Shown here in pieces: positions 28,468 through 30,701 of a stretch of DNA of 32,000 bases. The notes beneath the pieces were generated by a model. That model did not search any database. It saw only the letters and a list, made by a program, of their open reading frames with translations, and had not been told where the DNA came from. The position numbers were made by a program, and so were the translations under genes. Numbering within the stretch: position 1 is the stretch's first letter; every line of letters starts with the position of its first letter. This stretch comes from Candidatus Jordarchaeales archaeon (GTDB lineage Archaea > Asgardarchaeota > Jordiarchaeia > Jordiarchaeales > Freyrarchaeaceae): assembly GCA_038858525.1 (NCBI GenBank), contig JAWCFL010000004.1:52353-84352 (forward strand), given 5' to 3'.

Positions 28468-30701
28468 ATGTCAGCAAGGATGAAGTACATTGAAGAAGTT
28501 GAAAAAATGATGCGAGTGAAGGATCAAATAAGGAACTTCGGAATAATAGCGCATGTGGATCACGGCAAAACCACTTTAAGTGACTCCCTACTGGCGGAGG
28601 CGGGTCTGCTCTCCCCGACGATCGCGGGGGAAGCAAGGGCTCTCGACTACCTCGAGGAGGAACAGAAGAGAGGCATAACCATAAAGGCGGCTAACATCTC
28701 ATTGGTGCACAAGTTCGACGGAAAGGACTACCTCATCAACTTAATCGACACGCCCGGGCACGTAGAGGACGAGCCAACCGGCTTGTTCGCGTAAACTTCA
28801 CCGGGCACGTTACTAGAGCATTAAGAGTAATCGACGGTGCAGTAGTAGTTGTGGATGCCGTCGAGGAGGTCGGCGTCCAGACGGAAACGGTTACCCGGCA
28901 GGCTTTAGCTGAGCGCGTTAGGCCTGTGTTATTCATTAATAAGATTGACCGTTTAATTCGTGAGTTGAAGCTTGATGATCGTGGCGTTCAGGAGAAGCTT
29001 AACAGAATTATTCGTGACTTTAATGGTTTGATTGACTTATATGGTGAGAAGGAATTTGCAAACAAATGGAAAGTTAACCCTGCTGAGGGTAATGTAGCTT
29101 TTGGCTCGGCTCTTCACAGGTGGGGTTTCACTGTCCCCCAGATGTTGAATTTGGGATTGAAGTTTAGCGATATTGTTGCTTATTACAGGGAAGACCGGGT
29201 GGATGAGCTCAAGAAGCTTCTTCCCGTTCATGCCGCCGTGCTGGACATGGTTGTCGACCACCTTCCTAACCCGGTTGAGGCTCAGCGATACAGGGTTCCG
29301 AAGATATGGCATGGCGACATCAACAGCGAGCTCGGTAAAGCTATGCTTGATTGCGACGAAAATGGTCCGACAATCATTTGCTTGAACAAAGTTATCGTTG
29401 ACCCCCATGCAGGTATCGTGTCAACGGGTAGAGTTTTCTCTGGAACTATTAGTGAAGGTGACCAAGTTTACCTGCTCACAGCCAAGAAAGGATACAGAGT
29501 CCAGCAAACGAGCATTTACATGGGTGCTAGGCGTGCGATTGTCGGAGCTATTCCTGCCGGCAACATTGCGGCGATGCTTGGCCTAGAGCTCGCTAGGGCT
29601 GGGGAGACCGTGGTGGCTGAGGGCCTTAAAGACGTCATGGTTCCATTCGAGAAGATCAAGTATGTTTCAGAGCCCGTCGTCACAGTGGCTATCGAGCCGA
29701 AACACCCGAAGGACCTGCCAAGGCTTGTTGAGCTAATGCAGAGGCTTTCAATTCAGGACCCAAACATTGTTGCGACAATCAATCAGGAGACAGGAGAATA
29801 CCTGCTTTCAGGTATGGGTGAGTTACACCTCGAGATCTCGCTGAAGGAGATCCAGTCCGAGGTGGACATCACAGTTTCGCCACCTATAGTTGTCTACAGA
29901 GAGACCGTTACGTCATCCTCGCCGCCCATCCTGGGTAAGAGCCCGAACAAGCATAACAGGATCTGGATCATGGTTGAACCGCTTAACGAGGAGACGATCA
30001 ACCTGCTCGCTGAAGGAGAAATTTCAGAGTACCAGGATAGAGATGAAAGAGCGCGTATTTTGAGGGAGAAAGCTGGCTGGGATGCTCACGACTCTAGGAA
30101 CCTTTGGGCTATCGATGAACACTTTAACGTCATAGTGGACAGGACACGTGGCATCCAGTACATGCGAGAGGTCAAGGATACCATGATTTCAGGTATAAAG
30201 TGGGCTTGTGAGTCTGGGCCGCTCGCCGAGGAGCCAATGAGAGGTGTCAAAGTAGTCGTTACAGACTGCCAGCTTCACGAGGACCCAGTTCACAGAGGAC
30301 CAGCACAAATTATGCCTATGAGTAGACGCGCCACATGGGGTGCCTTCCTGAGCGCGAAGCCTACTTTGCTTGAACCCATATACAAGATTCAGGTGACTGT
30401 TCCACCAGACTACATCGGGACAGTCTCAAGTATACTATCCCAGCGCAGGGGACATGTTCTAAACGTGGAGCAGCGAGGCCCACTAGCATTCATAAATGGA
30501 GAAATCCCTGTCAGAGAGAGCTTCGGGCTGGCGAACGATATGCGCTCCAGGACCTCAGGCAGAGCCTTCTGGCAGACGCAGTTCTCAAGGTGGGCTGAAG
30601 TTCCAAAATCTTTACTGGGCGAAGTAATAGCGGAAGTGCGGAAGAGGAAAGGATTAAAGCCGGAGCCACCCAAAGCGGAGGAATACATAGACACGCTTTA
30701 A
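28468..30701 (+). CDS. fusA: Archaeal elongation factor EF-2, split by a 29-nt BHB intron (exons 28468-28765 and 28795-30701; 734 aa spliced)
   Basis: [20 protein letters not shown]|DF (restored by splicing), [12 protein letters not shown], diphthamide loop [11 protein letters not shown]. (2234-29)/3 = 735 codons including the stop. Confidence 0.95.
28766..28794 (+). other. Candidate bulge-helix-bulge (EndA-type) intron in EF-2 mRNA
   Basis: ACGU/GCGU 4-bp helix, bulges AG|A and AA|A, 9-bp intron stem GGACGAGCC/GGCUUGUUC. Excision gives CAC GUA GAC UUC = HVDF. Confidence 0.85.

Follow-up and report, generated by a model that had tools for sequence, protein, structure and literature searches.

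A probable bulge-helix-bulge intron within the elongation factor 2 gene of a Jordarchaeia archaeon

Within the literature searched, bulge-helix-bulge (BHB) introns in coding sequences are documented only for cbf5 of Crenarchaeota (Desulfurococcales and Sulfolobales). There, an intron some tens of nucleotides (nt) long, with quoted sizes of 36 and 39 bp (Yokobori 2009, PMC2738675), is cut from the pre-mRNA by a hetero-oligomeric splicing endonuclease. Here we describe a 29-nt insert in the elongation factor 2 (EF-2) gene of a Candidatus Jordarchaeales archaeon, located in a 32,000-nt stretch of contig JAWCFL010000004.1 (assembly GCA_038858525.1; hereafter the window, to whose first letter the EF-2 positions below refer). 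Like the cbf5 intron, this insert lies inside a coding sequence, is short, splits an invariant Asp codon between bases 1 and 2, and is patchily distributed among relatives, with precise presence and absence. On these sequence features it appears to belong with the cbf5-type introns, found here in a new gene. It differs from the crenarchaeal case by its host gene, EF-2, by its phylum, Asgard, and by the presence of at least five such predicted introns in the same genome. Moreover, splicing has been demonstrated for crenarchaeal cbf5, whereas for EF-2 it is predicted. The cbf5 intron was reportedly the subject of studies by Watanabe in 2002 and Yoshinari in 2006. The literature search returned no paper on BHB introns in EF-2 and none on introns in Asgard protein genes, in agreement with the original prediction of this intron, whose author was aware of no described EF-2 case.

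Three further systems are related to the one proposed here. The tRNA introns found at non-canonical positions in Freyarchaeia and Atabeyarchaeia (PMC11291895) come from the same clade, carry the same splicing signal and are similarly short. However, the EF-2 substrate would be an mRNA, from which removal has to be base-exact for the reading frame, and protein-gene introns are not mentioned in that paper (PMC11291895). The host had been supposed to be an Asgard archaeon, and it indeed belongs to the class Jordarchaeia, which in GTDB includes Freyarchaeia records. In eukaryotes, HAC1/XBP1 mRNA is spliced by IRE1 and RtcB: the endonuclease cuts two structured sites, an RtcB-type ligase joins the ends, and the frame changes. 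The splicing proposed for EF-2 is alike in that a protein endonuclease and an RtcB-type ligase would act on an mRNA and alter its frame. On the other hand, IRE1 recognises stem-loops and not a BHB motif, and its action is regulatory and stress-induced, whereas EF-2 splicing appears obligatory. Finally, EF-2 inteins and the archaeal rRNA introns that bear homing endonucleases likewise look like parasites inserted into the best-conserved motifs of essential genes. Inteins, however, span hundreds of residues and are removed at the protein level, whereas the putative EF-2 intron has 29 nt, encodes nothing and has no second copy (none in the host genome with up to 5 mismatches allowed).

Frame and predicted fold of the EF-2 insert

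The EF-2 gene occupies positions 28468-30701 of the window on the + strand, with the insert at 28766-28794. Exon 1 (28468-28765, + strand) starts at an ATG whose position agrees with the MSARMKY N-termini of congeners. It contains 99 full codons, down to ...DTPGHV, followed by a G that would be base 1 of the Asp codon. Read in translation from 28468, the open reading frame (ORF) gives ...LIDTPGHV and then meets an in-frame TAA at 28792-28794, inside the insert (+ strand), which shifts the frame by 2. In exon 2 (28795-30701, + strand), AC completes the Asp codon and is followed by 634 codons and a stop; in translation, the frame from 28797 is open to the stop at 30699-30701. Excision of 28766-28794 joins CAC GTA G to AC TTC (H-V-D-F), which restores the invariant GHVDF motif and an open frame of 734 codons, with GGGCACGTAG|ACTTCACC as the predicted spliced junction. 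Because an A stands at both 28766 and 28795, the insert can equally be written as 28767-28795. The coordinates and bases originally given for the insert prove correct to the base, as does the statement that a cut after the second base of each bulge restores DTPGHVDF.

Left unspliced, the message would reach UAA after 111 codons, counted from GTG 28459, and mechanical ORF calling at this locus yields two ORFs of 111 and 616 residues. The N-terminal G-domain of EF-2 found matches in 385 of 400 Asgard genomes. In the host genome (63 contigs, 2.09 Mb, 92.7% complete) the match is single, so that the intact EF-2 paralogue that had been proposed as a check is absent from it.

The predicted fold of the insert is organized around a central helix of 4 bp. 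Its 5' strand, ACGU (28760-28763), belongs to the exon, within the His-Val codons, and its 3' strand, GCGU (28789-28792), is intronic; the pairs are A-U, C-G, G-C and U-G. The 5' bulge AGA (28764-28766) would be cut after 28765 and the 3' bulge AAA (28793-28795) after 28794. Between them, the intron hairpin h' (28767-28788) consists of a 9-bp stem, GGACGAGCC (28767-28775) paired with GGCTTGTTC (28780-28788), closed by an AACC loop (28776-28779). All these elements are on the + strand. Each bulge is located 3' of its helix strand, which is the arrangement of pre-tRNA and not its mirror image. Both the 4-bp helix and the 9-bp stem are part of the minimum-energy structure calculated with ViennaRNA on a 66-nt segment around the motif (-27.8 kcal/mol, z = -2.46). 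The fold geometry of the original prediction (helix, 3-nt bulges, 9-bp stem and loop) is therefore borne out both by the letters and by the calculated structure. We estimate at about 3e-6 the probability that a 4-bp helix and an adjoining 9-bp stem arise by chance in a fixed register with G-U pairs allowed.

In addition, a distal exon-exon helix (28752-28806, + strand) formed by GCCCGG (28752-28757) and CCGGGC (28801-28806) encloses the whole motif and is present in the minimum-energy and centroid folds, across an asymmetric loop. A 10-nt direct repeat, CCGGGCACGT, is found on either side of the intron (28754-28763 and 28801-28810). It encodes PGHV and TGHV, provides the arms of the distal helix and probably reflects no more than the encoded protein.

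Conservation of the insert, splicing enzymes and further inserts in the host

The host class holds only 11 species in GTDB. An insert of 29 nt, with substitutions, is found at the same site in two genomes of the same genus, G001 and G002, and a public Jordarchaeia QC4 record (L032) is identical to G001 in the insert region. A third genome of the genus, G003, is devoid of the insert and shows the exact predicted junction, CACGTAGACTTT; G003 and Jordarchaeum sp. LHC_1308 (L049) both read CACGTAGACTTTACC, insert-free. The predicted cut sites coincide with the indel boundaries relative to the insert-free congener. Alignment with related genomes, one of the checks initially proposed, thus finds the insert present or absent at exactly the predicted site. 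Uninterrupted DTPGH[VIL]DF motifs are also observed in the sister genus, in all Freyarchaeia-like genomes but one and in 80 metagenomic loci. These loci, returned by a metagenome scan with exon 1, are 65-81% identical to it; none is a close relative, and the motif is intact in all. The branching order of the four congeners is not settled by the EF-2 DNA tree, which is compatible both with a loss in G003 and with an original absence.

Comparison of orthologous copies argues for a constraint on the insert itself. It differs at 4-6 of its 29 positions (14-21%), fewer than the 45-60% of differences at the fourfold-degenerate sites of EF-2 (242-245 sites; binomial P 3e-4 to 3e-6). In the insert-bearing genomes, with the 29 nt removed, the spliced EF-2 frame has a ratio of nonsynonymous to synonymous divergence (dN/dS) of 0.02-0.04 at dS 0.9-2.1, and strong purifying selection has therefore acted on the gene through a long divergence. 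In the structural alignment of the three orthologous copies, no copy departs from the others in the central helix or in either bulge. Five pairs of the 9-bp stem are invariant, and three are changed on one side and still paired (G-U to A-U, G-U to G-C and C-G to U-G), while three of the four bases of the AACC loop vary. The distal helix is invariant at 6 of 6 pairs, which is uninformative because both its arms are coding. The share of paired cells is 96.5%, as compared to 10-37% when the partners are slid. These figures indicate that the structure of the insert, as predicted, has been maintained in evolution.

The two enzymes named in the original prediction, EndA and RtcB, are both encoded in the host genome, which contains two EndA-family genes (PF01974) and one RtcB gene (PF01139, G000:C1:35280-36587). 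The EndA homologue of 191 residues (G000:C3, L059) most closely resembles the catalytic alpha subunits of crenarchaeal heterotetramers (3P1Z, 3AJV, 2ZYZ, 2CV8). Its alignment with the Aeropyrum pernix alpha subunit is gapless through the specificity loop, and the catalytic Tyr, His and Lys are conserved, which identifies the homologue as a putative alpha subunit with a Crenarchaeota-type specificity loop. Among solved structures, the second homologue, of 198 residues (G000:C43, L060), is closest to the fused EndA of M. kandleri and to the enzyme of M. jannaschii; it appears, by eye on the sequence and not by alignment, to lack the catalytic His. Because of these two features, it is read as a beta-like partner subunit. 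Asgard EndA is reportedly an (alpha-beta)2 enzyme with an L1 loop, and only (alpha-beta)2 enzymes with this loop or epsilon2 enzymes are reported to cut relaxed motifs (Kaneta et al., PMC5829648).

ARAGORN detects only 11 tRNA genes in the 2.09-Mb host genome, 8 of them with introns, which suggests that most of its tRNA genes are too fragmented for detection. This result is in line with the interruption of 92-95% of tRNA genes reported in Freyarchaeia and Atabeyarchaeia (Valentin-Alvarado 2024, PMC11291895).

The whole genome was scanned on both strands for a 4-bp helix with two 3-nt bulges, an adjoining stem, and cuts that fuse two open frames. The shortest candidates (29-31 nt) include EF-2 and four further genes, cbf5, gatE, PCMT and an AIR-synthase-family gene, in each of which the matches of the two halves follow on from each other along a single Pfam profile. 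The cbf5 insert (30 nt, G000:C1:177182-177211, + strand, L063) separates DKCLD from a TruB_N match starting at profile position 17. Its motif is CACT.aga...GGTG.aaa, with the same 5' bulge letters as in EF-2, and the catalytic Asp codon (GTL|DP) is interrupted after its first base, at the position also assigned to the crenarchaeal cbf5 intron on which experiments have been done (PMC2738675). In gatE (30 nt, G000:C2:68773-68802, L065), GatB_N is matched at positions 2-37 and then 47-276; in the AIR-synthase-family gene (30 nt, G000:C2:6357-6386, L064), the profile is matched at positions 2-48 and then 49-100; and in the PCMT methyltransferase gene (31 nt, G000:C1:145116-145146, minus strand, L066), at positions 2-59 and then 61-208. 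The bulges of these four inserts resemble those of EF-2, with AGA, AAA and, in two of them, ACA on the 5' side and AAA or AAG on the 3' side. In EF-2 and the four other genes, the EndA rule gives the very cut sites that the protein sequence requires. Hence, the EF-2 insert would be no isolated oddity but one of at least five such predicted introns in the host genome.

Structure taken by itself does not rise above a mirrored decoy, so the census is not exhaustive. BHB-like hairpins of 20-45 nt are equally frequent in the decoy and in the genome (2880 vs 2849), as are those with stems of at least 8 bp (461 vs 463), which makes structure alone unusable for counting introns. Longer scan candidates and one 29-nt candidate proved false. 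The candidate in the A-ATPase B subunit gene was rejected, an intact ORF being found in another frame, and those at MazE+PIN, a cation-efflux gene, Cdc6+HTH, a flavoprotein gene, Cas7+Cas5, Brix+Pcc1 and Metallophos+PF0610 correspond to neighbouring genes and not to split genes. One further 31-nt BHB-shaped insert (G000:C3:105398-106277, L067; GTTC.gag...GAAT.aaa, with a 10-bp stem and a 2-bp outer helix) is flanked by a 145-codon frame that has no Pfam match and by one with hexapeptide repeats, and may be an intron or mark a gene boundary.

Proposed splicing of the EF-2 message and competing explanations

We consider it highly probable that the 29-nt insert is a BHB intron, removed from the EF-2 pre-mRNA by the splicing endonuclease, with the exons joined by RtcB. 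The insert is real and very probably spliced; the cleavage and ligation steps themselves we infer. In this mechanism, the gene would be transcribed with the insert, and in the RNA exonic ACGU would pair with intronic GCGU, with the AGA and AAA bulges on opposite strands and the 9-bp hairpin stacked on the helix. A two-subunit endonuclease, made of the alpha and the beta-like subunits, would cut each bulge after its second base, and RtcB would then join the exons to give CAC GUA G|AC UUC (H-V-D-F) and would probably circularise the excised 29-mer. EF-2 would be obtainable from the spliced mRNA only, because the unspliced one ends at the premature UAA.

Several observations weigh against this interpretation. 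No outer exon-exon helix adjoins the 3' bulge (outer = 0), for which reason the predicted EF-2 motif is classed as the relaxed HBh' form and not as the strict hBHBh' one. Cleavage of relaxed motifs depends on the type of enzyme, an (alpha-beta)2 or epsilon2 endonuclease being reportedly needed (PMC5829648). Across the genome, BHB-like shapes as such are no more frequent than in the mirrored decoy, and the weight of the argument consequently rests on the restoration of frame and motif and on the comparative data. Finally, one stem pair is an A.C mismatch in two of the three orthologous copies. The original prediction had looked to related genomes for compensatory stem changes; three of the four varying pairs do stay paired, but no double compensatory change is found, which among only three copies is weak evidence either way.

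Removal at the RNA level by a nuclease and ligase other than EndA and RtcB is very unlikely. It draws on the lack of an adjacent outer helix, but it has to face the agreement of the protein-required cut sites with the EndA rule in five genes. As for self-splicing, the core of a group I or II ribozyme takes hundreds of nt, far more than the 29 nt available, and the EF-2 insert region has no match in Rfam at E <= 1.

Translational recoding without splicing, either by a ribosome hop in the style of phage T4 gene 60 or by a frameshift inside the insert, seems highly improbable to us. A matched take-off and landing pair does exist, in the form of two GUA triplets (28762-28764 and 28791-28793) exactly 29 nt apart, and a frameshifting ribosome would meet no stop, as the exon-2 frame is open across the entire insert. 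However, a GUA-to-GUA hop would continue with AAC and yield HVNF, losing the invariant Asp that is kept in the insert-free congener and in all 80 metagenomic relatives. The codon that follows the take-off GUA is GAG, and a stop of the gene 60 type is absent there. A frameshift, for its part, would add about 10 residues to the switch II of an EF-2 that elsewhere hardly differs from the insert-free protein. In addition, the inserts of same architecture in cbf5, gatE and the AIR-synthase-family gene hold in-frame stops, and at least the cbf5 one is devoid of a matched codon pair.

There is similarly little chance that the gene is dead or split, that is, an EF-2 pseudogene or a source of two polypeptides of 111 and 616 residues, even though these are exactly the ORFs obtained by ORF calling. 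The gene is the sole EF-2 of the host genome. The low dN/dS holds over both parts of EF-2 in three insert-bearing species, at near-saturated synonymous divergence, and the conservation of the insert itself also argues against a dead gene. The 616-residue ORF begins 18 codons past the junction, with loss of conserved G-domain residues, and a break inside switch II would be hard to reconcile with GTPase function. Lastly, although the host assembly is incomplete and in 63 contigs, an assembly or sequencing artefact can be dismissed because three independent assemblies carry the insert, including those of two other species-level genomes with 4-6 substitutions, and the L032 record is identical to G001.

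Predicted introns affect an essential GTPase of translation as well as several other genes, which suggests that the Asgard host lineage regularly relies on its tRNA machinery to splice mRNA when expressing its genes; the genomes of this lineage also have extremely intron-rich tRNA genes. In practice, EF-2 is a universal marker for phylogeny and for genome-quality estimates, and a hidden 29-nt intron misleads gene callers, which return a 111-residue stub and an N-terminally truncated EF-2; the same problem arises in cbf5, gatE and other host genes.

EF-2 inserts in other Asgard lineages

BHB-shaped inserts of unrelated sequence are found near GHVDF in EF-2 of other Asgard lineages. With the host genus counted, they fall at three positions no more than 6 nt from the motif. 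One is inside the His codon, behind its first base, with an insert of 217 nt in the Freyarchaeia-like genome G005 (L012, G005:C414) and one of 33 nt in G033 (L018, G033:C76), from another family. After the His codon, there are inserts of 29 nt in L038 (NJEG01000044) and of 33 nt in G146 (L162, G146:C23); the latter has a 4-bp outer helix and corresponds to the canonical hBHBh' form. The third position, between bases 1 and 2 of the Asp codon, is that of the 29-nt insert of the host genus. The inserts of G005, G033, L038 and G146 fit the helix-and-bulge geometry, with one G.A mismatch in the central helix of G005 and of G033, and the cut rule restores GHVDF in each. The 217-nt intron predicted in G005 is present there as a single copy and is absent from two congeners. 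NJEG01000044 is labelled Altiarchaeales, yet its EF-2 is 78% identical to that of the host. A second EF-2 site, QRRG|ITIK, about 30 codons upstream, carries 31-nt inserts of the same shape in G020 (L169, G020:C23) and G040 (L170, G040:C61).

It is possible that such inserts persist at conserved codons because there the exonic strand of the central helix is not free to drift. A broader proposal is that Jordarchaeia and other Asgard archaea harbor a population of obligatory, endonuclease-spliced mini-introns in core genes (EF-2, cbf5, gatE), with the clustering at three EF-2 positions reflecting site-directed gain, which may for example have come about by reversed action of the endonuclease and ligase or by decay of homing introns. 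If so, the synthesis of the translation apparatus would possibly depend on the tRNA-splicing capacity of the cell, and a protein-enzyme system of mRNA splicing would exist in the prokaryotic lineage closest to eukaryotes. We regard this proposal as tentative and rather doubtful. The patchy distribution within one genus, together with independent neighbouring inserts in distant Asgard families, makes this a tractable system for studying intron gain and loss.

Other irregularities were observed at the EF-2 N-terminus. In G012:C29:13895-14713 and G023:C137:2596-3414, it matches in two pieces within one open frame of 919-924 residues, which looks like an intein in the P-loop region. The N-terminal match contains one in-frame TAA in G122:C36:26987-27274, and one in-frame TGA in G135:C1:88421-88741, where it is 24 nt longer than expected; these two cases could be in-frame mini-introns or recoding.

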